Assembly (NCBI GenBank): GCA_965248715.1
Contig: CBDFKB010000006.1
Coordinates: 87,871-151,870, forward strand
Length of the DNA: 64,000 bases
Direction: 5' to 3'
From: Rhizobiaceae bacterium
Lineage (GTDB): Bacteria; Pseudomonadota; Alphaproteobacteria; Rhizobiales; Rhizobiaceae
Shown: positions 1,399-55,367 of the stretch, one piece after another
Numbering within the stretch: position 1 is the first letter of the stretch
Layout of the letters: every line of letters begins with the position of its first letter
Made by a program: the position numbers and the translations under genes
The notes under the pieces: generated by a model
What the model was told of the DNA's origin: nothing
The model's database searches: none
The model's input: the letters and a program-made list of their open reading frames with translations, nothing else

Positions 1399-3054
1399 AT
1401 GGCACGGCAATTCATCTATTTCATGCAAGGGCTTTCCAAGACCTATCAGGGCGGCAAGAAGGTGCTCGACAATGTGCACCTGTCATTTTACCCGGACGCC
1501 AAGATCGGTGTGCTGGGACCGAACGGCGCCGGCAAGTCGACCTTGTTGAAAATCATGGCCGGGCTGGAAGGCGAATATACCGGCGAGGCGTGGGCGGCCG
1601 AGGGCGCCAAGGTCGGTTATCTGTCCCAGGAACCGAAATTAAACGAGGCGCTGAGCGTCAAAGATAATGTCATGCTCGGGGTGGCGCAAAAACAGGCGGT
1701 GCTGGAGCGCTACAACGAACTGATGATGAACTACTCCGACGAGACCGCGGCCGAAGCGTCTGAGTTGCAGGATCGAATTGACGCCGAGGATTTATGGGAT
1801 CTGGATTCCAAGATAGAAATGGCGATGGAGGCGCTCCGGTGCCCACCCGGCGAGGCCGAGGTCGGGCAGCTTTCCGGCGGCGAGCGGCGGCGGGTAGCGC
1901 TTTGCCAGTTGCTGTTGTCGGAACCGGATCTGTTATTGCTCGACGAGCCGACCAACCATCTCGACGCCGAGACCGTGGCCTGGCTGGAAAAACATTTGCG
2001 CGAGTTCAAAGGTGCGGTGCTGATTGTCACCCACGATCGCTATTTTCTCGACAATGTTACCGGCTGGATCCTCGAACTCGACCGGGGGCGCGGCATTCCT
2101 TACGAGGGCAATTATTCCGCTTACCTTGGCCAAAAGGCCAAGCGCTTGCACCAAGAAGGGCGCGAGGATGCAGCCCGCCAGCGCGCGCTTTCGCGTGAGC
2201 GCGAATGGATTGCCGCCAGCCCGCGCGCGCGCCAGGCAAAATCAAAGGCGCGCATCAAGGCCTATGACGAGTTGCTGAAAACCAATGAGGCGCGCAAACC
2301 CGGTGAAGCCCAGATTATTGTACCGCCCGGCCGCCGCCTCGGCCAAACCGTGATTGATGCCGAAGGACTTTGCAAAGGGTTTGGCGACCGGCTGTTGATC
2401 GACAACCTGTCGTTCAAATTGCCCGCCGGCGGCATTGTCGGTGTCATTGGACCAAACGGCGCCGGCAAGACCACCTTGTTTCGCATGATTACCGGCCAGG
2501 AACAGCCCGACAGCGGGGAAATTCAGCTCGGTGACACGGTTGATCTTGGCTATGTGGACCAAAGCCGTGACACTCTGGACGGCGCCAAGACGGTTTGGCA
2601 GGAGATTTCTGGCGGCAGCGATGTCATCAAACTTGGCAAGCACGAGATGAATTCGCGCGCCTATGTCGGCGCGTTCAATTTTCGCAAGGGCGACCAGCAG
2701 CAAAAGGTCGGCACCCTTTCCGGTGGCCAGCGCAACCGGGTGCACCTGGCCAAGATGCTGAAATCCGGTGCCAATGTATTGCTGCTCGATGAACCGACCA
2801 ATGACCTAGATACCGAGACCCTTGGCGCGCTCGAAGACGCGCTGGAGGAATTCGCCGGTTGCGTGGTGATCATCAGCCATGACCGGATGTTTCTAGACCG
2901 GCTCGCGACCCACATTTTGGCGTTCGAGGGTGACAGCCATGTGGAATGGTTCGAGGGCAATTTCGAAGATTACGAGGAAGATAAAAAGCGCCGCCTTGGC
3001 GCCAACGCAGTGCTGCCGAAACGGATCCAGTATAAGCCGTTTACCCGAAGATAG
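1399..3054 (+). CDS. ettA: ABC-F ATPase, energy-dependent translational throttle protein EttA
   Basis: 551 aa with two ABC cassettes (GPNGAGKST twice; LSGGERRRVAL and LSGGQRNRVHL signatures). N-terminus MARQFIYFMQGLSKTY and the length are typical of EttA/YjjK. Confidence 0.95.
   Translation: MARQFIYFMQGLSKTYQGGKKVLDNVHLSFYPDAKIGVLGPNGAGKSTLLKIMAGLEGEYTGEAWAAEGAKVGYLSQEPKLNEALSVKDNVMLGVAQKQAVLERYNELMMNYSDETAAEASELQDRIDAEDLWDLDSKIEMAMEALRCPPGEAEVGQLSGGERRRVALCQLLLSEPDLLLLDEPTNHLDAETVAWLEKHLREFKGAVLIVTHDRYFLDNVTGWILELDRGRGIPYEGNYSAYLGQKAKRLHQEGREDAARQRALSREREWIAASPRARQAKSKARIKAYDELLKTNEARKPGEAQIIVPPGRRLGQTVIDAEGLCKGFGDRLLIDNLSFKLPAGGIVGVIGPNGAGKTTLFRMITGQEQPDSGEIQLGDTVDLGYVDQSRDTLDGAKTVWQEISGGSDVIKLGKHEMNSRAYVGAFNFRKGDQQQKVGTLSGGQRNRVHLAKMLKSGANVLLLDEPTNDLDTETLGALEDALEEFAGCVVIISHDRMFLDRLATHILAFEGDSHVEWFEGNFEDYEEDKKRRLGANAVLPKRIQYKPFTRR
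2951..3054 (+). repeat. direct repeat copy 1: the 3' end of ettA in current use (last 34 codons plus stop)
   Basis: 104 bp, 92/104 identical to 4567-4670 in the same orientation by my base-by-base comparison. Confidence 0.9.
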
Positions 3055-3063
3055 TAGGGAACA

Positions 3064-3837
3064 ATGTTCAAAAAATTACAAGATTGCGGTTTTGATGTTC
3101 TTTCGCTCCATCATGCGGAAGCAATTGTAAAAATTGATTTTCCTGAAGCGCTTATTGAACTTGAAACCGTACTCCAAAACCTCGAATTGCCCATAGTAGA
3201 GATTGTCAGCGGCGGCGGAGGTGAATCAAAGCTAACCCAGCGATTGAGACGCAATCTTGTTGAACATGGATGGCAGAAACGAAACATAGAGGTGCATAAG
3301 ACCGTTCGCTGGGGCGCTGACCAACCAGAGATAGCCGTTGCGGCAATTTCCCACGAAATTGATCATGTTAATGCATTCGGCCCAAATGCGAATGTTTTTG
3401 CTCTGGAAATTGAGTGGAACAATAAGGACCCGTTTTTTGACCGCGATCTGGAAAACTTCAAACGATTGCACGCGGAAGGTGCAATTTCGGTCGGCGGCAT
3501 AATTACCCGTGGCGAATCGCTTCATGCCAATATGCGATCCCTAGTTGCACGGTTCGCCGACGACAACGAAATAGAAGACTTTGTTACCTTGGGCCAATTT
3601 GGGTACTCACCTACCGGTCGGCAAAGAAGCAATATTTTCTCACGTGCGGAAAAACTCGGTGATTTTAGGCAAGCATGGGTTGAGTGGTTTGTTTCTGACA
3701 AGTTTGGCGAAGCAACCACACATTGGCAGAAATTGCATGACCGCGTTCTACGCGGAGTAGGAAACCCATGCCCGCTTGTCCTAATAGGAATTCCAGACAG
3801 CGTTGTCAGTTTCGACTATTCGGTGGCCGAATTATAG
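3064..3837 (+). CDS. type II restriction endonuclease, BglII/BstYI(BamHI)-like fold
   Basis: 257 aa. IDHVNAFGPNANVFALEIEWNN fits the D-x(n)-E-x-E catalytic arrangement of BamHI/BglII-type enzymes. GW..R motif and C-terminal PLVLIG resemble BstYI as I recall it. Convergent with, and overlapping by 22 bp, a DNA methyltransferase gene. Confidence 0.7.
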   Translation: MFKKLQDCGFDVLSLHHAEAIVKIDFPEALIELETVLQNLELPIVEIVSGGGGESKLTQRLRRNLVEHGWQKRNIEVHKTVRWGADQPEIAVAAISHEIDHVNAFGPNANVFALEIEWNNKDPFFDRDLENFKRLHAEGAISVGGIITRGESLHANMRSLVARFADDNEIEDFVTLGQFGYSPTGRQRSNIFSRAEKLGDFRQAWVEWFVSDKFGEATTHWQKLHDRVLRGVGNPCPLVLIGIPDSVVSFDYSVAEL

Positions 3838-4481
3838 GCGTAGGTATTCCAATTTGGACGGTAGTTTTCGTCGGCTTCATCGCCCCAATAGGTCCAACCG
3901 GGTCTGGTGCCGCGTGCGAACAATTCGAGGTAAGGCCCGGGAGAACAATCTTCGATCAGATCATACTGTTCGTCTGGTTTGCGAGAATGCTCGCGCTTGC
4001 GCGACTGAATCATGTTGACCTGGCTTCGACCGGGCGCAAGCGTGCGAGCATTTTTACCCCGGACACCAAACAGTAGAATTTCAGTCACATTTCGAAAATA
4101 AAATCCAACTCCACGTCCATCTGAGCCACCATCCTTGCGGATCTTGTGCCAGACGATATTCGATTTATACTCGAATCCCCATGCCTTAATGACTTTCAGC
4201 CCTTCAGGGAGCAAAGCATTGGGTACCCACAAATAAAGGTGCGACGGGTTTGCAACCAGCGCATTTACTGGCAACTCGCAAATTTCTTCGGTGCTCAACG
4301 TTTGATAACGAGACAATCGTTTGTGCTCGGGAGCAATCTTTCCTGTCCTATTGGTAAATCTCCAAGGTGGATCGGCTAATATAGTATGAAACGCTTCATC
4401 ACCGGCGGCGTCAAGAAGCTCGAATGCTGTATCGAACATCTCGGTAACCATTTCATTCTCCGTATCAGCCGCAAGGAACAA
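3816..4481 (-). CDS. MT-A70 family DNA methyltransferase (DPPW motif)
   Basis: 221 aa with ILADPPWRF catalytic motif IV, characteristic of MT-A70/N6-adenine (or N4-C) methyltransferases. Paired with the endonuclease gene. Confidence 0.85.
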   Translation of the reverse strand: MFLAADTENEMVTEMFDTAFELLDAAGDEAFHTILADPPWRFTNRTGKIAPEHKRLSRYQTLSTEEICELPVNALVANPSHLYLWVPNALLPEGLKVIKAWGFEYKSNIVWHKIRKDGGSDGRGVGFYFRNVTEILLFGVRGKNARTLAPGRSQVNMIQSRKREHSRKPDEQYDLIEDCSPGPYLELFARGTRPGWTYWGDEADENYRPNWNTYAYNSATE

Positions 4482-4566
4482 AAACAGAACAAATATCGAT
4501 TGTCAATTGCCTAATCCACGCGGGATTGAGATATTCATCACCTCTTATTGCTGATTCGTAAATGCC

Positions 4567-4670
4567 TCGAGGGCAATTTCGAAGACTATAAGGAAGATAA
4601 AAAGCGTCGCCTTGGTGCCGACGCGGTGCTGCCAAAACCGATCCGGTATAAGCCGTTTACGAGAAGATAG
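4567..4670 (+). repeat. direct repeat copy 2: displaced, non-functional copy of the ettA 3' end
   Basis: Would encode LEGNFEDYKEDKKRRLGADAVLPKPIRYKPFTRR*, versus FEGNFEDYEEDKKRRLGANAVLPKRIQYKPFTRR* in ettA. 12 mismatches in 104 bp. Confidence 0.9.
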
Positions 4671-5487
4671 TGGGGAACACGAGGTCCAGGATACTGTTCA
4701 CGATAAATCTCACATAGTCTAGCCAGCCCAGCTCGGTCTCAGGAATTGGTTCCGGCTTTGGCAGCAATTGCGGACAAGGCTCGGTGGTTGCCAGCACCGC
4801 GCGGTAATCGCCGCGTTCGAACGCATCATCGACAAAGCGGCGGCGCTCGGGCGATAACGCTTGGCCCATGTCAGGCGGAAAATGCTGGGCCAGTAATTCT
4901 CGCCAACTATCTTGCGGTGGCACTAGGCGATTGAGAACCTGCTGAAGATAGTAGCGGACGTCTGGATTAAGCGCGACGACGGATTCCTCGCTTCCAAGAA
5001 TCAGTGCCTTATGGGCAGCCTGGTAGATTCCGATCGAGGCATATTCGGTCAACTCATGCGCCGCCTCGGCGATGCGAAGCTCGTTTTTGTCCAGGTTTGG
5101 CGCAATGATCCCGCAATGCAAAACCCGATCGTACTTTTTACTGAACATGCCTGACATGACGATGCGGAACAGCTTCTCAAAAAAGCAGAAACCGAGTATC
5201 CCGCTATCGCCATTGTTATGAATGATGCTGCTGCGGCGCCATCGCGCGCGCATTCCCGGTTCGTTCATGATCGGGCGAAATTTTGGATGTAGGGTTGCGT
5301 AGGCCTCGTACGTCGCGTCCAACCATTGTGGGCAGCGGCCATCATTTGTTGGCCTGAACTGGTCGTATGTTGGCTGGCGCGGGCCGGAAAAATCCCATAT
5401 CGGCGGTGCGGTTTCCTGTGCCGTAACCGCGCCTGCCACCTGCATGCAAGATGCAAATACGATGAATAAAATTGCGAATTTCCCCAT
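4657..5487 (-). CDS. secreted hypothetical protein
   Basis: 276-aa ORF with N-terminal signal-like segment MGKFAILFIVFASCMQVAGAVTA. I recognise no family. Confidence 0.55.
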   Translation of the reverse strand: MGKFAILFIVFASCMQVAGAVTAQETAPPIWDFSGPRQPTYDQFRPTNDGRCPQWLDATYEAYATLHPKFRPIMNEPGMRARWRRSSIIHNNGDSGILGFCFFEKLFRIVMSGMFSKKYDRVLHCGIIAPNLDKNELRIAEAAHELTEYASIGIYQAAHKALILGSEESVVALNPDVRYYLQQVLNRLVPPQDSWRELLAQHFPPDMGQALSPERRRFVDDAFERGDYRAVLATTEPCPQLLPKPEPIPETELGWLDYVRFIVNSILDLVFPTIFS

Positions 5488-9910: not shown

Positions 9911-9994
9911 TGTCGGTTCTCGGACAAGAATACGCGACAAAACAAATAGATAGAGCACTATTTGCGATTCACAAATGGCGAAAAGTGCGCTAGC
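9911..9994. repeat. mosaic palindromic intergenic repeat (partial module A, spacer, hairpin module B')
   Basis: GCGACAAAACAAATAGATAGAGCACTATTTGCGATTCACAAATGGCGAAAAGTGC is nearly identical to 58218-58275. It ends at GCTAGC. Confidence 0.85.
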
Positions 9995-10628
9995 TTGTTT
10001 TGGCCTTGGTTAGAACCAGAAATGTCATCATACCAAGCGGCGGCAAAGTTTTTTGTTCTTCGACCACCAGTGTCTGCTCGTGTAGGACCATCTCGATCTT
10101 GAAATCCGAATGCCAACCGATGATGTTGGCGAAAGGTGCAGATACCCGTTCGAGAAATGCTAATACCCCCTGCGTGCGCACAAAGTGATTTGTAATTACC
10201 ACTTTGCCGCCCGGTTTCAGCACCCGTGCAATTTCGGCCATCACTTTTTCCGACTCCGGCACCACCGACAGCACATGCATAGCGGCAATGGTGTCAAAGG
10301 AGTTATCCGGGAAATCGAGCATTCGGGCGTCCATCTGCAGCAGTGCCACCACCTGCTTCAGTTTCATGCGCAGCACCTTGCTCCGGGCCTTTGCCAGCAT
10401 CTTTGTGCTGAAATCAATCCCTGTAACCTGCAGGTCGGGTTTGTAGTGTTGCAGGGAAAGTCCGGTGCCAACGCCAACTTCAAGCACGGTACCTGTCAGG
10501 TTATTGATATACTCGACCGCCCGGCACCTGCCGACATTGGTCACCACACCAAAGGTTTTGTCATAGACTGGGGCCCAGCGGGCATAGGAGGTTTGAACTG
10601 CTTCGATATCCACTCTATTTTCCTTCAT
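9990..10628 (-). CDS. class I SAM-dependent methyltransferase; probable phospholipid (phosphatidylethanolamine) N-methyltransferase, judged from context
   Basis: VLEVGVGTGLSL SAM motif I and a UbiE-like fold. Lies immediately downstream of, and overlapping, pssA in a psd-pssA-MT operon. I prefer the start at ATG 10628. Confidence 0.55.
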   Translation of the reverse strand: MKENRVDIEAVQTSYARWAPVYDKTFGVVTNVGRCRAVEYINNLTGTVLEVGVGTGLSLQHYKPDLQVTGIDFSTKMLAKARSKVLRMKLKQVVALLQMDARMLDFPDNSFDTIAAMHVLSVVPESEKVMAEIARVLKPGGKVVITNHFVRTQGVLAFLERVSAPFANIIGWHSDFKIEMVLHEQTLVVEEQKTLPPLGMMTFLVLTKAKTS

Positions 10629-11379
10629 TAAATTTAGGCGGTTGCTTCGAAAGCAAGTACCAAGCCACCATTCCAATATATCCAAGACAAAGGACAATCA
10701 GGGTGATCCAAGCATAGGTCAGCACGGCGGCCCCAACAAACGCAAAGCCAACCAAGAGGAATTTTACATTCGTGCGCGATACTCGGGTGGTTTTGAACGA
10801 CCAAGTGGGTATGGGGCTGATCATCGCCAAACCAACTACAACCATGTAGGCGCAAATGATGAAACCGGGCAGCAGGGGTGTTTGGGAAAAAGCAAAGGAC
10901 ACGTACATCGGCAACATAACCAGCAGCGCACCTGCTGGTGAGGGAACGCCAACAAAATGGGCGCTTGGTTCGGCCTGGTCACTGTCATGGTCGGTTTTGC
11001 TGTCGACGTTGAACCGAGCCAGTCGCAAAACGCAGCACACTGCATAGATCAGAACCGAAATCCATGCGGCACTGCGCATGTCCTGCAAGGCCCAGAAATA
11101 GACCACCATCGGCGGGGCAACCCCAAAATTCACAAAATCCGCCAGCGAATCTAGTTCGGCACCCATTTTGCTGTCACTGCTCAGCATTCGTGCCAATCTT
11201 CCATCGAGCCCATCGAGAATACAGGCCGCCACGATCAACTGCACCGCCAGCACGTAGTTGCCCTGAACCCCGAAGCGGATTGCCGTCAGGCCCGCACAAA
11301 TAGCCGTGATTGTCAGCATATTCGGGATTAACTGAACCAGTGCAAAGTCGCTTATGGTTTTTTGTGGGGCTTGGGTCAT
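10615..11379 (-). CDS. pssA: CDP-diacylglycerol--serine O-phosphatidyltransferase
   Basis: DGLDGRLARMLSSDSKMGAELDSLAD is the CDP-alcohol phosphatidyltransferase motif. A multi-TM 254-aa protein next to psd. Confidence 0.9.
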   Translation of the reverse strand: MTQAPQKTISDFALVQLIPNMLTITAICAGLTAIRFGVQGNYVLAVQLIVAACILDGLDGRLARMLSSDSKMGAELDSLADFVNFGVAPPMVVYFWALQDMRSAAWISVLIYAVCCVLRLARFNVDSKTDHDSDQAEPSAHFVGVPSPAGALLVMLPMYVSFAFSQTPLLPGFIICAYMVVVGLAMISPIPTWSFKTTRVSRTNVKFLLVGFAFVGAAVLTYAWITLIVLCLGYIGMVAWYLLSKQPPKFNEGK

Positions 11380-16239: not shown

Positions 16240-17553
16240 CTACTCCGCCGGCTCCCGCACGCTTGGATTGTTCGGATGCATGGTCCAGTTGGCGTAGTTC
16301 GGGTCGACCTTTTTACCGGTGCGTTTGTCTAGTGCGCCGGGGGCAAGCGGGTCCAAGGAGATGCAATTTTCCACCGGACAGACATTGGCGCACAAATTGC
16401 AACCGACGCATTCTTCTTCGATCACCGTAAATTTGCGTTCCCCATTGCTGTTCATCGAAATTGCCTGGTGCGAGGTATCTTCACAGGCGGCAAAACAGCG
16501 CCCGCACTGGATGCACAGTTCCTGATCGATACTGGCCTTGGCGATGTAATTGAGGTTGAGATATTGCCAGTCGCTGACGTTGGGCACCGCGCGGCCGATG
16601 AAATCGTCCAAGCTATTGTGGCCCTGCTCGTCCATCCAGTTGGAAAGCCCGTCGGTCATTTCGGTCACGATCCTGAAGCCATAGGTCATGGCGGCGGTGC
16701 AAACCTGCACATTGCCGGCACCAAGGGCCATGAATTCGGCCGCATCGCGCCAGGTGGTAACCCCGCCGATGCCGGAGATCGGCAGGCCGGCGGTTTCGGA
16801 ATCACGGGCGATATCGGCCACCATATTGAGCGCAATCGGCTTGACCGCCGGGCCGCAATAGCCGCCATGGGAACCCTTGCCGTCGATCGACGGTTCGGGC
16901 GAAAAATTATCCAGATTGACCGAGGTGATCGATGAGACCGTGTTAATCAGCGATACCGCATCAGCACCACCCGCCTTGGCGGCACGGGCCGGATAGCGGA
17001 TGTCGGTGATATTCGGTGTCAGTTTAACGATCACCGGCATACGAGTGTAGGCCTTGCACCAGCGCGCGACCATCTCGATATATTCCGGCACCTGGCCAAC
17101 CGCCGAACCCATGCCGCGCTCGCTCATGCCATGCGGGCAACCGAAATTAAGTTCGATGCCGTCGGCGCCAGTATCTTCGACCAACGGCAATATCTTTTTC
17201 CACGCCCCCTCCTCACACGGCACCATGATCGAAACTATCATTGCCCGGTCTGGCCAGTCGCGTTTGACCTGCTTGATTTCGCGTAAATTTACATGCAGAT
17301 CGCGGTCGGTGATCAGTTCGATATTGTTGAGGCCCAGCAAACGACGGTCAGCGCCCCAAACCGCGCCGTAGCGCGGGCCGTTGACATTTACTACCGGCGG
17401 ACCCTCCTCGCCAAGGGTCTTCCAAACCACACCGCCCCACCCGGCCTTAAAGGCGCGCACCACATTGTATTCTTTGTCGGTCGGCGGCGCGGACGCGAGC
17501 CAGAACGGGTTCGGCGATTTGATGCCGAGGAAGTTCGAAGCGATATTGGCCAT
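16240..17553 (-). CDS. preA: NAD-dependent dihydropyrimidine dehydrogenase subunit PreA
   Basis: 437 aa. A DHOD-like TIM barrel plus C-terminal 2x[4Fe-4S] motifs (CIQCGRCFAACED..., CVGCNLCANVCPV). Confidence 0.9.
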   Translation of the reverse strand: MANIASNFLGIKSPNPFWLASAPPTDKEYNVVRAFKAGWGGVVWKTLGEEGPPVVNVNGPRYGAVWGADRRLLGLNNIELITDRDLHVNLREIKQVKRDWPDRAMIVSIMVPCEEGAWKKILPLVEDTGADGIELNFGCPHGMSERGMGSAVGQVPEYIEMVARWCKAYTRMPVIVKLTPNITDIRYPARAAKAGGADAVSLINTVSSITSVNLDNFSPEPSIDGKGSHGGYCGPAVKPIALNMVADIARDSETAGLPISGIGGVTTWRDAAEFMALGAGNVQVCTAAMTYGFRIVTEMTDGLSNWMDEQGHNSLDDFIGRAVPNVSDWQYLNLNYIAKASIDQELCIQCGRCFAACEDTSHQAISMNSNGERKFTVIEEECVGCNLCANVCPVENCISLDPLAPGALDKRTGKKVDPNYANWTMHPNNPSVREPAE

Positions 17554-17564
17554 TTGGTCCTCCT

Positions 17565-18030
17565 ATTCCTCATCCGTCATCCTTGGGCTCCGGCCCAAGG
17601 ATCCAGTCTGATGCCTATTTCATACTCGCCACTTGGCCATCCTCAAAACGTTTGACGAAGGTCGGCTGAAACAAATTGTCATGTTCATAGCAGGTCGGGA
17701 AAAGGTCAGCCCAACCGGGATTGAAGTTCTCAATTAGGTTGAGTTTCCATTTTCTTCGATAGAGCTTCAGCGGTTTTTCCCGCTGAATTGCTGTTTCAAT
17801 ATCGTAGTGGCGCTCATACCACACAAGCGTCTTGCAGCCATACTGGCGGGTAAACCCTGGAATATCGCCCTGTTTATGTTCTTGCGCCCGGCGCCAAAGA
17901 TCAGAGGTAACGCCGATATATAGTGTCCCGTTTCGCTTTGAAGCCATAATGTAGACCCAACCCCCCATTTCAAAGCCGCCCGATTACTGGATCCTTGGGC
18001 CGGAGCCCAAGGATGACGGCCGAAATAGGT
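17565..18030 (-). mobile_element. GIY-YIG nuclease cassette 1, bounded by 34-bp hairpin-containing terminal inverted repeats
   Basis: TIRs CCGTCATCCTTGGGCTCCGGCCCAAGGATCCAGT at 17574-17607 and its exact reverse complement at 17986-18019. Each contains the ATCCTTGGGC-N4-GCCCAAGGAT hairpin. Confidence 0.7.
17615..17968 (-). CDS. GIY-YIG nuclease family protein (small stand-alone, COG2827/YhbQ-like)
   Basis: MGGWVYIMASKRNGTLYIGVTSDLWRRAQEHK...KTLVWYERH..IETAIQREKPLKLYRRKWKLNLIE contains the GIY...YIG and catalytic R/E motifs. Confidence 0.9.
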   Translation of the reverse strand: MGGWVYIMASKRNGTLYIGVTSDLWRRAQEHKQGDIPGFTRQYGCKTLVWYERHYDIETAIQREKPLKLYRRKWKLNLIENFNPGWADLFPTCYEHDNLFQPTFVKRFEDGQVASMK

Positions 18031-18111
18031 GTGGCGCGGACGCGAGCCAGAACGGGTTCGGCGATTTGATGCCGAGGAAGTTCGAAGCGATATTGGCCAT
18101 TTGGTCCTCCT

Positions 18112-18577
18112 ATTCCTCATCCGTCATCCTTGGGCTCCGGCCCAAGGATCCAGTCTGATGCCTATTTCATACTTGCCGCTTGGCCATCCTCAAAACGTTT
18201 GACGAAGGTCGGCTGAAACAAATTGTCATGTTCATAGCAGGTCGGGAAAAGGTCAGCCCAACCGGGATTGAAGTTCTCGATTAGGGTGAGTTTCCATTTT
18301 CTTCGATAGAGCTTCAGCGATTTTTCCCGCTGAATTGCTATTTCAATATCGTAGTGGCGCTCATACCACACAAGCGTCTTGCAGCCATATTGGCGGGTAA
18401 ACCCTGGAATATCGCCCTGTTGATGTTCTTGCGCCCGGCGCCAAAGATCAGAGGTAACGCCGATATATAGTGTCCCGTTTCGCTTTGAAGCCATAATGTA
18501 GACCCAGCCCCCCATTTCAAAGCCGCCCGATTAATGGATCCTTGGGCCGGAGCCCAAGGATGACGGCTGAAATAGGT
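18112..18577 (-). mobile_element. GIY-YIG nuclease cassette 2 (same architecture)
   Basis: TIRs at 18121-18154 and 18533-18566 (33/34 match). 547 bp from cassette 1. Confidence 0.7.
18162..18515 (-). CDS. GIY-YIG nuclease family protein, second copy
   Basis: 117 aa with 5 aa differences from copy 1 (K33Q, T58I, P65S, N76T, V113A) and about 9 nt differences in 354 by my count. Confidence 0.9.
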   Translation of the reverse strand: MGGWVYIMASKRNGTLYIGVTSDLWRRAQEHQQGDIPGFTRQYGCKTLVWYERHYDIEIAIQREKSLKLYRRKWKLTLIENFNPGWADLFPTCYEHDNLFQPTFVKRFEDGQAASMK

Positions 18578-18667
18578 GCGGCGCGGACGCGAGCCAGAAC
18601 GGGTTCGGCGATTTGATGCCGAGGAAGTTCGAAGCGATATTGGCCATTTGGTCCTCCTGCGTAAAAC

Positions 18668-19498
18668 TCAACCGAGGCGAAAAATCATTTCGACCGGAGC
18701 GATTGTTTTTGAATTGACGCTCGTCACCATGTTGGCAATCTTTTCAACCGCGTGCTCGCCAACTATCAACGGTATTCCCAAAGGCGACTGACCGCTATTG
18801 GCGATAGTGGCACCGAGCTTGACAAAGAATTCACGGGCAAAATCACCGCGATCGCGCTCGGCGATCAGCGCAAAGCCAGCGTTTTTGGCTGCGTCGCGAT
18901 AGCCTTGCGGGTGGCCCACGTGCGACTGGTCCACGGTCGTTGCCCACGGTACCGGATACGACACCGCGCCATCGCCGGTTAGCATAACATCGTAAACCGC
19001 GAAACTGCCGCCATTTTTCAGTACCCGCGCCACTTCGGTAAATAGGCGTTGCTTGTCAGGGATATTCATGCCGACGTGAATTAAGGTCGCAACATCAAAA
19101 CTGTTGTCTGGTTCAGGAATATCCAGGACCGAGCCGGTTTTGAAAGTGGCCGCAATGCCCACCGCGACGCTCAGCTTTTGTGCGGTCTCGACAAATTCAG
19201 CAGTTAGATCGATGCCGGTAACATCGGCCCCATATCGTTCTGCGATGTATCGTGCGGTGCCGCCAATGCCACTGCCGAGATCGACTACCCGGCTGTGTTC
19301 GGTAATCGGCACCTGTGCCAGCAATGCTTCGGTGGCTCCAAGGCCGCCGATGTGGAATTCATCCACCGGTTTTAAGTCTTTAGCGGTGGCGCTCGTTAAT
19401 TCTTTGCCGGTCTTGGCCAGTCCTTGTGCGATGCGGGCCAACAGCGAACCGGTGGTGTAATGGCCCGCGACTTGGGTTTCCAAATCCGACAAATTCAT
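18668..19498 (-). CDS. class I SAM-dependent methyltransferase (Methyltransf_11-like), located between preT and preA
   Basis: VVDLGSGIGGTARYIA motif I, and DVATLIHVGMNIPDKQRLFTEVARVLKNGGSFAVYD. Confidence 0.8.
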   Translation of the reverse strand: MNLSDLETQVAGHYTTGSLLARIAQGLAKTGKELTSATAKDLKPVDEFHIGGLGATEALLAQVPITEHSRVVDLGSGIGGTARYIAERYGADVTGIDLTAEFVETAQKLSVAVGIAATFKTGSVLDIPEPDNSFDVATLIHVGMNIPDKQRLFTEVARVLKNGGSFAVYDVMLTGDGAVSYPVPWATTVDQSHVGHPQGYRDAAKNAGFALIAERDRGDFAREFFVKLGATIANSGQSPLGIPLIVGEHAVEKIANMVTSVNSKTIAPVEMIFRLG

Positions 19499-19527: not shown

Positions 19528-20934
19528 CTATTCGCTCAGCGTTTGATGCATGCTTTCGGCCGCATCGCGACCCTGGGCGACGGCGAAAACGGTTAGATCA
19601 TCGCCGCCGTTAACGCAGTCGCCGCCGGCCCATACATTTTCAAGCGAGGTGCGGCCTTCAGCGTCGATACGAATGCGGTCTTTGGCCATTGCTGGCCCAC
19701 CATCTGCAAAACTCGCACCCGCCAGTTTCTGGCCGATCGCCACCAGCACCTGGTCTGCTGCGAGTACCAGCTTGCGTCCGGTGCCAGCAAGTTTACCGTT
19801 TTCGTGTGCAGTATATTCCAATTCGATTTGGTTTGCCGCGCCATTGTCGCCGCGAACCGCGACCGGTTGCAGCCAATGGCGGATCGTTACTCCTTTTGCG
19901 GCGGCCAATTCCTGCTCAAGTGCTGACGCATTCATACGGTCCTGGCCGCGGCGATAGCAGATCGTCACGTCCTCGGCGCCAAGCAGCTTCGACTGTATAG
20001 CCGCGTCGATAGCGGTCATACCGCCGCCGATTACCACCACCCGGCGGCCAACCGGTATGGTCGCCATATCTCCTGCCTGGCGCAAATCGGCGATGAAATC
20101 GATGGCATCGACCACACCGGCCAATTCCTGGCCATCAATACCGAGATCGTTGCTATCGCCCAACCCGGCGCCAATAAACACCGCATCGAAATCCTTACGC
20201 AGCGCTGCCAATTCAATTTCGTCGCCAAGCCGTTTGCCATGTTTGATAGAAATGCCACCAATCGCAGTCACGTAATCGACTTCGGCCTGGGCGAAATCTT
20301 GCACGGTTTTGTAGGCGGCGATGCCATACTCATTAAGACCACCTGATTTTTCGCGCGCGTCGAAGATCGTAACGTTGTGGCCAAAGCTGGCCAGCCGGTG
20401 GGCGCAGGCAAGACCGGCCGGTCCCGCCCCAACCACCGCCACCTGCTTGCCGGATGTTTCCGGTCGACTATAAAACTGACGGCCCATCGACATTGCGAGA
20501 TCTGTTGCATAACGCTGTAGCCGGCCGATTTCCACCGGCTTACCCTCGGCGGTTTCACGCACACAAACCTCTTCGCACAAGGTCTCGGTCGGGCATACCC
20601 GGGCACACATGCCGCCGAGAATATTCTGGTCGAAGATGGTTTTGGCCGAACCGACCGGGTTGCCGGTGGCAATCTGGCGAATGAACATTGGGATATCGAT
20701 CGTGGTCGGGCAAGCAGTCACACACGGCGCGTCGTGACAAAAATAGCACCGGTCGGCGGCGACCAGCGCCTCATGCGCTTCAAACGGCGGATGGAGGTCG
20801 GAAAAATTCTCCGCATAATCTTCCTCACCCAAACGTCCGGGGACGATGCCCTCATCATAAATTCCTGCAGCCATGAAACGCTCCCTCGTTTCCCATTGCG
20901 GTTCAAAGATAGACGCGATCGATTTTTTGATCAA
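19528..20934 (-). CDS. preT: NAD-dependent dihydropyrimidine dehydrogenase subunit PreT (GltD-like)
   Basis: 468 aa. N-terminal Fe-S cysteines (CYFCHDAPCVTACP, CARVCP), then VAVVGAGPAGLACA and VVVIGGGMTAIDAA dinucleotide folds. Confidence 0.9.
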   Translation of the reverse strand: MIKKSIASIFEPQWETRERFMAAGIYDEGIVPGRLGEEDYAENFSDLHPPFEAHEALVAADRCYFCHDAPCVTACPTTIDIPMFIRQIATGNPVGSAKTIFDQNILGGMCARVCPTETLCEEVCVRETAEGKPVEIGRLQRYATDLAMSMGRQFYSRPETSGKQVAVVGAGPAGLACAHRLASFGHNVTIFDAREKSGGLNEYGIAAYKTVQDFAQAEVDYVTAIGGISIKHGKRLGDEIELAALRKDFDAVFIGAGLGDSNDLGIDGQELAGVVDAIDFIADLRQAGDMATIPVGRRVVVIGGGMTAIDAAIQSKLLGAEDVTICYRRGQDRMNASALEQELAAAKGVTIRHWLQPVAVRGDNGAANQIELEYTAHENGKLAGTGRKLVLAADQVLVAIGQKLAGASFADGGPAMAKDRIRIDAEGRTSLENVWAGGDCVNGGDDLTVFAVAQGRDAAESMHQTLSE

Positions 20935-22103: not shown

Positions 22104-22149
22104 AGATAGCGCGACGAAGCTATTCCAACGCTTGGTGACAAGCGCTAGC
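22104..22149. repeat. mosaic repeat module B, separated from its module A by about 140 bp of unrelated sequence
   Basis: AGATAGCGCGACGAAGCTATTCCAACGCTTGGTGACAAGCGCTAGC. In other copies, modules A and B are only about 15 bp apart. Confidence 0.8.
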
Positions 22150-28782: not shown

Positions 28783-29090
28783 GCGTATTCCCGAAAAGTG
28801 GAAACCGGTTTTCGGATAAGAATGCGCGCATAAACTAAGAGCTAGCGCTACGAAGCGTATCCAACGCTTGGTGACAAGCGCTAAGCGTATTCCCGAAAAG
28901 TGTGTAGCGGTTTTCGGATAAGAATGCGCGACAAAACAAACAGATAGCGCTACGAAGCGTATCCAACGCTTGGTGACATGCGCTATCGCGTATTCCCGAA
29001 AAGTGTGTAGCGGTTTTCGGATAAGAATGCGCGACAAAACAAACAGATAGCGCGACGAAGCTACTCTAACGCTTCGTGACAAGCGCTAGC
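28776..29090. repeat. three tandem units (102, 102 and 111 bp) of the mosaic A-spacer-B palindromic repeat
   Basis: Units start at 28776, 28878 and 28980. Each reads GCGCTAAGCGTATTCCCGAAAAGTG..CGGTTTTCGGATAAGAATGCGCG..AGCGCTACGAAGCGTATCCAACGCTTGGTGACA. Confidence 0.9.
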
Positions 29091-33377: not shown

Positions 33378-33484
33378 GCTAGCGCTTGTCACGAAGCGTT
33401 GGAATAGCTTCGTCGCGCCATCTCTTTATTTATGCCTGTCATTTTCCCCAAAACCGGTGCCCACTTTTGGGTGACACGCTCTAG
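33378..33484. repeat. mosaic palindromic repeat (B-spacer-A, reverse orientation), bounded by CTAG
   Basis: GCTAGCGCTTGTCACGAAGCGTTGGAATAGCTTCGTCGCGCC...CCCAAAACCGGTGCCCACTTTTGGGTGACACGCTCTAG. Confidence 0.9.
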
Positions 33485-55262: not shown

Positions 55263-55367
55263 CTAGCGCTTGTCACGAAGCGTTGGGATAGCTTCGTCGC
55301 GCGATCTCTTTGTTTATGTGTGTCATTTTTCCCAAAACCGGTACCCACTTTTCGGGAATACACGCTC
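55263..55367. repeat. mosaic palindromic repeat (B-spacer-A, reverse) nested inside MITE-like element 1 at a CTAG
   Basis: CTAGCGCTTGTCACGAAGCGTTGGGATAGCTTCGTCGCGCG...CCCAAAACCGGTACCCACTTTTCGGGAATACACGCTC. Absent from the homologous position (CTAG at 60578-60581) of element 2. Confidence 0.85.

Follow-up and report, generated by a model that had tools for sequence, protein, structure and literature searches.

How can a gene be entered at codon 24 by two copies of a nuclease gene and still be left intact? The question is raised by the start of preA, a gene of pyrimidine breakdown, in a 64,000-nt stretch of DNA from a Rhizobiaceae bacterium (contig CBDFKB010000006.1, positions 87,871 to 151,870; this whole stretch is called the window below). 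Two tandem cassettes lie here between a methyltransferase gene and preA, each carrying, between inverted hairpins, a gene (ssn) for a small GIY-YIG nuclease of the Ssn family, and an 81-bp segment that includes the preA start is repeated on both sides of each cassette. The answer that we consider probable is that an Ssn unit came to lie at the methyltransferase-preA junction through insertion with long target duplication and was then amplified in tandem. The locus is a new example of two published kinds, the Ssn/hairpin unit and the insertion with long target duplication, and not a new class of element. It provides the first insertion footprint found for an Ssn cassette, with exact ends, an 81-bp duplication that spares the host gene and apparent tandem amplification, and it joins two literatures, one on Ssn nucleases and CGTC-tagged hairpin repeats and the other on the insertion of nuclease genes with long target duplications.

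The duplicated preA start and its two cassettes

All genes of the preT-preA region lie on the minus strand. The order as transcribed is preT, methyltransferase, repeat 3, cassette B, repeat 2, cassette A and repeat 1, the last leading into preA. The features, in that order (aa, amino acids; ORF, open reading frame; RBS, ribosome-binding site; SRM, Ssn-related motif), are these:

19528-20934, minus strand: preT, first gene of the operon, a dihydropyrimidine dehydrogenase subunit (Pfam Fer4_20 and Pyr_redox_2)
18668-19498, minus strand: class-I methyltransferase gene, 276 aa, in the preT/preA interval (Pfam Methyltransf_11)
18578-18658, minus strand: 81-bp direct repeat copy 3, transcribed first, with the preA RBS (AGGAGG), the ATG, 23 codons and 1 nt (repeat search)
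18531-18647, minus strand: truncated preA' leader ORF B, 38 codons, 23 from preA and 15 through the upstream hairpin (ORF)
18112-18577, minus strand: cassette B, 466 bp, hairpin, ssn, inverted hairpin (repeat search)
18533-18566, no strand assigned: upstream hairpin (SRM) of cassette B, with the CGTC-tagged form on the sense strand
18162-18515, minus strand: ssn copy B, 117 aa, intact (ORF, Pfam)
18121-18154, no strand assigned: downstream hairpin (SRM) of cassette B, with the CGTC-tagged form on the antisense strand
18031-18111, minus strand: 81-bp direct repeat copy 2, with a single mismatch at position 80 (repeat search)
17984-18100, minus strand: truncated preA' leader ORF A, 38 codons (ORF)
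17565-18030, minus strand: cassette A, 466 bp (repeat search)
17986-18019, no strand assigned: upstream hairpin (SRM) of cassette A (repeat search, folding)
17615-17968, minus strand: ssn copy A, 117 aa, homolog of Ssn-family GIY-YIG nucleases of single-stranded DNA (Pfam, BLASTP)
17574-17607, no strand assigned: downstream hairpin (SRM) of cassette A (repeat search, folding)
17484-17564, minus strand: 81-bp direct repeat copy 1, the functional preA start (repeat search)
16240-17553, minus strand: preA, 437 aa, intact (best homologs 86% identical over the full length)

The 81-bp unit consists of AGGAGGACCAA, the ATG and 70 nt of preA coding sequence, and its third copy begins 9 nt after the methyltransferase stop codon. 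A repeat search found three direct copies of 81 nt, spaced at 547 and 547 bp and 100, 99 and 100% identical, just as an earlier reading made from the sequence alone had reported. That sequence-only reading had also placed the cassettes in sense within a preT-methyltransferase-preA operon, in agreement with the gene order, and had described leader frames of 23 preA codons plus 15 cassette codons whose TAA precedes a 117-aa ORF by 15 nt; the ORF list gives the same frames and the same 15-nt distance to the ssn ATG in both units. It was right that a single copy, that at 17484-17564, continues into full-length preA, but this copy, which it called the first, is the last in the direction of transcription. 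Its 466-bp inserts with 34-bp inverted hairpin ends were found as well. The ends, CCGTCATCCTTGGGCTCCGGCCCAAGGATCCAGT, occupy 17574-17607 and 17986-18019 in cassette A, where the two arms are 100% complementary, and 18121-18154 and 18533-18566 in cassette B, where the left arm has one change (CCATT for CCAGT). No convincing extension of the inverted ends beyond 34 nt was found.

Between the two 547-bp units there are 12 differences, one in the 81-bp repeat, two in the left end and nine in the ORF, which amounts to 2.2% divergence by substitutions only. The earlier count of about 9 nt is corrected to 12 for the unit. Five of the ORF changes are non-synonymous and four synonymous (synonymous divergence about 5%; ratio of non-synonymous to synonymous rates, dN/dS, roughly 0.4), and the invariant residues are untouched. 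The single mismatch among the repeats is in the middle copy, adjoining a cassette end, and between the two outer copies there is no difference.

The array is an insertion into a pre-existing methyltransferase-preA junction, because in a relative (L083) whose PreA is 86% identical the two genes adjoin, 11 nt apart, with no ssn between them. The methyltransferase of this relative, 276 aa long and 58% identical to that of the window, lies directly upstream of preA, and the N-terminus of its PreA runs on uninterrupted (...WLASAPPTDK). Two further relatives (L081 and L082) have preT followed directly by preA and likewise lack ssn, and in all three the 81-bp target segment is single and contiguous. 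A comparison of related preT-preA loci for empty sites had been proposed in the sequence-only reading, and these three supply them; its claim of cassettes inserted in the 5' end of preA gains an empty junction at 86% PreA identity, and its claim that the 81-bp duplication restores the host ORF agrees with the intact preA. Base composition also sets the insert apart: the ssn ORF has a guanine-plus-cytosine (GC) content of 48%, and of 54% at third codon positions, against 55-58% and 60-72% for its neighbors.

The arrangement itself is informative about the first event. The array has n inserts and n+1 repeats, so that the first event must have been the formation of a repeat-cassette-repeat structure. 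That the array arose from an intergenic cassette by simple duplication in tandem was considered and rejected: the junction sequences show part of preA ahead of the first cassette, where such a duplication cannot set it. No recombinase, integrase or transposase gene was found near the cassettes, whose neighbors in the window are housekeeping genes, and an integron-like or otherwise integrase-driven cassette was ruled out for lack of a recombinase nearby.

An Ssn nuclease gene between its hairpins

Both copies of the gene match the Pfam GIY-YIG family (E = 6.5e-15 and 3.8e-14), and the product is a single-domain protein of 117 aa in which PF01541, at residues 3-77, is the only match; no DDE, HUH, serine or tyrosine transposase domain was detected in the cassette. 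A BLASTP alignment of the window protein with the 94-aa SsnA ortholog of Neisseria gonorrhoeae is free of gaps and shows 57% identity (E = 5e-33), and a tblastn search of N. gonorrhoeae gave E = 2e-22; the published threshold for Ssn homology is E < 1e-10 (PMC11893778). Residues Y6, Y17 and E64, which are invariant in our alignment (A1) and keep the numbering of SsnA, are those that were mutated in the SsnA study (PMC11893778). A search of 5.8 billion proteins returned 3,514 relatives, of which the closest after the window copies themselves is 76% identical; the cluster at 90% identity contains nothing beyond these window copies, which share a single contig of 262,866 nt. No further ssn was found in the window besides copies A and B, exact-protein look-ups of both copies, the cluster representative and PreA returned no record, and a sequence search of the PDB gave only the distant UPF0213 proteins 1zg2 and 1ywl. 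A GIY-YIG homing endonuclease was rejected on the NCBIfam model TIGR01453, that of the group I intron endonucleases, which scores 17.8 bits against a cut-off of 56 and aligns with residues 5-33 only.

The sequence-only reading knew of no described mobility mechanism for this small GIY-YIG family. The family has been described as that of the Ssn nucleases, site-specific enzymes for single-stranded DNA, for which SRMs have already been published (PMC11893778). Chenal et al. (2025) described the hairpin-ssn-hairpin layout, with hairpins to either side of the gene in 42% of Ssn homologs; they likened the architecture to that of an insertion sequence and proposed mobility, of which none was demonstrated, while favoring domestication (PMC11893778). 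The 94-aa SsnA of N. meningitidis binds its hairpin, CGTCATTCCCGCG...GCGGGAATCYRG, exclusively as single-stranded DNA, cleaves shortly 5' of it (on our reading, 3-4 nt 5' of the tag), leaves double-stranded DNA uncut and restricts transformation by DNA that carries the repeat; a CGTC tag and a 3' C are the reported determinants of cutting and binding (PMC11893778).

The hairpins of the cassettes have the same determinants. Each cassette end forms a stem of 10 bp closed by a loop of 4 nt (folding energy -11.3 kcal/mol, z = -5), with CGTC immediately 5' of the palindrome and C immediately 3' of it, and the gene is bracketed on both sides by inverted 34-nt arms of this kind. Four copies of the hairpin occur in the window, where none would be expected by chance, and all four flank the two cassettes. 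The wide dispersal of hairpin copies that is typical of SRMs was therefore not seen within these 64 kb, and an Rfam search of the region 17300-18800 gave zero matches at E <= 1. Taken together, the comparisons identify the cassette as an Ssn gene accompanied by the motifs of its family and its product as a predicted nuclease of single-stranded DNA. The protein resembles SsnA in its single GIY-YIG domain, in its catalytic residues and in the inverted CGTC-tagged hairpins around its gene, and departs from it in having 117 rather than 94 aa, with a C-terminal extension of about 22 aa. The stem of 10 bp and the four hairpins in 64 kb also differ from the published systems, which have hundreds of hairpins per genome. 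So does the placement within the start of a coding sequence, in tandem and with duplicated host flanks, a footprint of which PMC11893778 has no counterpart.

A survey of 85 other ssn genes in 80 loci, from Alpha-, Beta-, Gamma- and Deltaproteobacteria, Dehalococcoidia, candidate-phyla bacteria and cyanobacteria, placed the cassettes in a wider setting. The surveyed genes are repeatedly flanked by inverted hairpins of the form GTCAT-stem-loop-stem-ATCCAG, and forward hairpin, gene, reverse hairpin is the commonest layout (26 of the 85 genes by a simple detector). The ORFs of many relatives read into the downstream hairpin, with C-termini such as ...GPRIQ, ...LDPRDGARG and ...SPRMT. Four records labeled as plasmids, NZ_CP119140.1, NZ_CP119142.1, CP090106.1 and NZ_CP104131.1 (N. 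gonorrhoeae and Sinorhizobium), are of chromosome size, 2.2-3.7 Mb.

Several ssn loci show that the units are gained, lost and locally multiplied. Rhizobium bangladeshense, in an isolate draft (L002), has two tandem ssn units at 2186-3340 with a period of 653 nt and 93% identity, followed at 3500-3980 by gene-less doublets of hairpin, 71 nt and hairpin that have the same 44-nt inverted ends and resemble miniature derivatives. At 3938-4992 of the same locus, 2.5 tandem copies of a 428-nt repeat, 100% identical, may be an effect of assembly. In the gltA-lpxB spacer of Sinorhizobium meliloti Ak57, a complete replicon (L091, 1630-2480), there are two tandem ssn units, the first internally deleted, and some 120 nt of spacer come after each. 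At the same site in Sinorhizobium sp. K101 (L092, 470-570), where the flanks are 94% identical, there is no more than a solo palindrome, its halves looking like a hybrid of the forward and reverse hairpins; the two strains thus differ by gain or loss of ssn units.

A different history, in which ssn is an old resident gene of the operon that was domesticated, locally duplicated in tandem and never mobile, draws on other loci. The closest relatives of the window proteins (72-75% identical; L084, 2691-3834, and L085-L088) are encoded in sense between ureA and ureB, 7-26 nt after ureA, with a forward-reverse hairpin doublet downstream, which the called ORFs enter, and none upstream. The position between ureA and ureB is kept across proteins that are about 75% identical to one another. 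This constancy, the intact state of both window copies with their dN/dS of roughly 0.4, and the domestication favored in PMC11893778 all fit a long-settled gene. At preA, though, ssn is absent from L083 and from L081 and L082, its base composition is unlike that of its neighbors, and a tandem duplication cannot set a preA fragment before the first cassette; we give this history only a very slender chance.

Expression of the cassette probably depends on the host operon. Promoter-like sequences for ssn match at chance level only, and an internal promoter was dropped from consideration on that ground and because its start would fall downstream of the ATG. The hairpins lack a T tract and were ruled out as intrinsic terminators, no good Shine-Dalgarno sequence precedes the ssn ATG, and in the urease lineage the ssn ATG follows the ureA stop by 7 nt. 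Since there is no terminator-like hairpin, promoter or Shine-Dalgarno sequence, and since the ureA spacing is so tight, it is plausible that ssn is transcribed by read-through from the preT operon and that its translation is coupled to that of the preA' leader. The 38-codon leader would be translated through the upstream hairpin, and would thereby open it for ssn.

A probable insertion with long target duplication

The pattern called "insertion with long target duplication" (Nobusato et al. 2000, cited after Furuta et al. 2010, PMC2853133) is that of inserts flanked by direct repeats of more than 30 bp that have no other mobility gene. Restriction-modification (RM) systems of all types, orphan methylases and the solitary HNH gene mcrA were found to be inserted in this way (Furuta et al. 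2010, PMC2853133). The repeats frequently cover a translation start or stop, so that the target gene survives; such inserts also occur within operons, the units amplify tandemly through their repeats, and invasion, amplification and release have been proposed for units flanked by long repeats (PMC2853133).

The preA locus shares these properties one after another. Its flanking repeats, at 81 bp, are longer than 30 bp and correspond to a target that is present once in the empty site of the 86% relative; the insert carries ssn only, with genes of mobile elements neither inside it nor adjoining; and the repeats span a start, the site is within an operon, neither transposase nor integrase is present, and the units are in tandem. 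The cargo is different, being an Ssn/hairpin cassette with inverted ends of its own and a lone GIY-YIG gene rather than an RM system, although the published set does include the lone HNH gene mcrA and orphan methylases. The long target duplication, which had been taken in the sequence-only reading for part of a compact autonomous element, is a published pattern (Furuta et al. 2010, PMC2853133).

The course of events can be modeled as follows. The unit that entered would have been an Ssn-type gene between two cognate hairpins, its product a small GIY-YIG nuclease that would cut single-stranded DNA beside a CGTC-tagged hairpin. An event initiated by a break or nick, and completed by host recombination or replication, would copy the 81-bp target so that it lies on either side of the insert. 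As the copied segment reaches from the RBS to codon 24, the preA start was left intact and the insertion could be tolerated. The second unit would then come from unequal homologous recombination, with either the 81-bp repeats or entire units as partners, and we infer from the 2.2% divergence that the two copies would have drifted apart later.

A number of observations weigh against this account. Breakage of DNA by the nuclease is suspected in insertion with long target duplication, yet the mechanism is unknown even for RM systems (PMC2853133). The cassette ends do fall on the side of the hairpin where Ssn cuts, 5' of the CGTC tags, but their distance from the tag is 12 nt on the sense strand and 10 nt on the antisense strand, compared with the 3-4 nt that we read for SsnA, so that nuclease-defined ends are not established. 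The published SRM pattern, HGTCWYN(0-2)YYVSBRHN(0-5)WNVSBRGN(0-2)RNCYNB, has no match in the window as a regular expression, since the stem of the window hairpin exceeds the length that the pattern allows; the NTS control from Neisseria does match, and so do 51 of the 80 ssn loci. A duplicated fragment of a host gene flanks none of the 85 other ssn genes in the survey, so that the long duplication is no hallmark of the family. The synonymous divergence of about 5% between the tandem copies clashes with the instability expected of a 547-bp repeat. No conspecific allele with an empty site or a single unit was found, the best PreA relative being 86% identical, and scans of metagenomes for exact matches to the hairpin and to the preA start gave 0 matches each. 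A single locus that has no conspecific comparison is a lead and not a demonstration.

The survey result was the answer to a further suggestion of the sequence-only reading, that the cassettes of relatives be searched for long flanking duplications. Long flanking repeats had been considered as a possible family hallmark and were dropped: where long repeats abut the hairpins (L051, L053 and L023), they consist of hairpin doublets or mosaic repeats and in no case of host coding sequence. The duplication of host sequence at an ssn cassette thus appears to be a single case so far.

Comparison with other kinds of mobile DNA helps to place the cassette. The likeness to REP/RAYT units (REP, repetitive extragenic palindrome) that had been noticed at the outset is apt, in that a nuclease-type gene is bracketed by inverted hairpins. 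In RAYT/REPIN systems (REPtrons), too, the hairpins are recognized as single-stranded DNA, and doublets like theirs occur at other ssn loci (L053, L002 and S. meliloti); RAYT, however, is an HUH-Y1 transposase that works through a covalent intermediate and a GTAG tag, whereas the window has a GIY-YIG hydrolase and a CGTC tag. Palindromes tagged with CGTC at one end form a class of REPs common in Alphaproteobacteria, for which Di Nocera et al. (2013) found no associated dedicated enzyme (PMC3733652); the Ssn work and the loci described here tie CGTC repeats to a GIY-YIG gene. IS200/IS605 elements are also small and have subterminal hairpins recognized in single-stranded DNA, but their hairpins are on the same strand at both ends, they encode an HUH transposase, they make no target duplication and their copies are dispersed. 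Free-standing GIY-YIG homing genes of the Seg and I-TevI type likewise reside in or beside a conserved host gene and spread by host repair, but their products have DNA-binding domains and cut double-stranded DNA, and they leave no flanking duplication. Integrative elements of the attP type (phages or islands at tRNA genes or icd), which bring along a copy of one end of the target gene, have long direct repeats, one of which continues into the intact gene, and form tandem multimers; they use a tyrosine or serine integrase, absent here, and it is mostly the 3' end of the gene that they restore.

A second insertion of this kind is present in the same window. A BglII-like endonuclease gene (3064-3837, plus strand) and an MT-A70 methylase gene (3816-4481, minus strand) form an RM pair with a GC content of 47%, against 58% for the neighbor. 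The insert, 3064-4560, is flanked by 119-nt direct repeats at 2945-3063 and 4561-4679 (104/119 identical), made up of the final 36 codons, the stop codon and 9 nt from the ABC-F ATPase gene at 1399-3054. This pair is another case of long target duplication, here at the end of a gene.

Arrays at other preA genes and the route of entry

A search with a 46-aa leader ORF led to a protein (P0243) present in five independent assemblies, and through it to a comparable array at the preA start of a distant lineage. At 4818-5255 of this locus (L094; GC 44%, PreA 56% identical), the first 72 nt of preA occur three times with a period of 183 nt. Between the copies are two identical 111-nt inserts that contain a hairpin, CCTTCCCCTAAAAATAGGGGAAGG, and no nuclease gene, and the third copy leads into preA. 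Arrays of the same type are found in L093, L095 and L096, and the five independent assemblies agree. The repeat-insert-repeat pattern therefore needs no resident nuclease gene. The break point, at coding nt 72, is 2 nt from that of the window, at nt 70, a likeness that may be coincidental. A hot spot at codon 24 of preA was considered and rejected, as 4 of 60 short ORFs with a PreA N-terminus break at codons 22-25, close to the expectation for an even spread; many others in this set are adaptor or frameshift artifacts. In a 1,054-nt contig from a marine metagenome (L097, 725-946), preA is broken after codon 22 (…WLASA) by GC-richer sequence, and this insert has a direct repeat of about 50 nt close to the contig end.

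The comparison with L094 bears on whether the cassette might be a compact autonomous element, as the sequence-only reading had claimed. The GIY-YIG enzyme of such a transposon would nick the target at positions 81 nt apart and join the cassette to it, making the 81 bp an enzyme-generated target-site duplication. The terminal inverted repeats around a nuclease gene would suit such an element, as would cassette ends on the Ssn-cut side of each hairpin and, beside full cassettes in L002 and S. meliloti, gene-less doublets that resemble miniature derivatives. GIY-YIG nucleases, however, are hydrolytic and alone incapable of strand transfer, a chemistry that is not known in this superfamily. The target boundaries have neither a hairpin nor a CGTC motif, and L094 shares the layout with no nuclease gene at all. 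Insertion sequences have copies at unrelated sites, a transposase and a short target duplication of fixed length; here the only two near-identical copies on record share this locus, as the 90% cluster on one contig indicates, the duplication is 81 bp long, and no other ssn gene of the survey has one of host sequence. Furthermore, SsnA does not cut double-stranded DNA (PMC11893778). The claim has accordingly lost ground, and we regard autonomous transposition as very unlikely.

The tandem structure itself could be in part an artifact of assembly, in which case the real locus would be repeat-cassette-repeat and two strain variants, 2.2% apart, would have been threaded serially through the 81-bp repeat. 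There is a single source contig, of unknown assembly method; the differences between the units are all substitutions, about as many as coexisting strains commonly show; and a 547-bp tandem with about 5% synonymous divergence is unexpectedly stable. On the other side, tandem ssn units occur independently in the Rhizobium isolate draft and in the complete S. meliloti replicon, and the analogous array of L094 is in five independent assemblies. Because a loop of this kind requires 81-bp repeats around a cassette, the repeat-cassette-repeat core would survive and only the tandem would go. The chance that the array was so produced seems to us slight.

Another route of entry is that homology was carried in with the cassette. 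A circle or linear piece of 547 bp, holding the cassette and the 81 bp, would have entered the preA start by homologous 'ends-in' recombination of the Campbell type, as a monomer or dimer, and Ssn cuts 5' of the sense-strand hairpins of an array would free single strands of unit length. The array is circularly permuted, and any opening inside the 81 bp would yield the identical product; n inserts and n+1 repeats are found both here and in L094; the middle repeat holds the sole mismatch, adjoining the cassette end; and invasion, amplification and release is the scheme already proposed for long-repeat units (PMC2853133). The origin of the first unit of cassette plus 81 bp is left unexplained, neither a circular form nor a donor allele was seen, and the outer repeats are identical, as duplication in place predicts. 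We consider this route unlikely, and duplication in place, followed by amplification, the better account.

A bolder proposal, and one that we think quite improbable, is that it is the Ssn nucleases themselves that bring about insertion with long target duplication, the ends being set by cuts 5' of the inverted hairpins, one per strand. Freed strands of unit length, each with cassette and repeat, would anneal, and their long complementary 3' tails would re-enter a homologous or micro-homologous target. If this were true, active Ssn would supply both a mechanism for long target duplication and a mobilizing enzyme for CGTC-tagged REPs, and the codon-24 region of preA would be a preferred landing site shared with the distant lineage of L094.

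Two features elsewhere in the window are recorded here for completeness. A second Methyltransf_11 gene (9990-10697, 235 aa) lies about 8 kb away from the cassettes, beside genes of phospholipid synthesis, and has the Pfam families of the methyltransferase between preT and preA. A second dispersed hairpin repeat, unrelated to that of the cassettes and with the core CTAGCGCTTGTCACGAAGCGTTGGAATAGCTTCGTCGCGC, occurs at 22110-22139, 29051-29080, 33388-33417 and 55272-55301, four intergenic copies where none would be expected, and one of these ends a three-unit tandem array at 28783-29088 (period about 102 nt) that directly follows the stop codon of a LysR-type gene.

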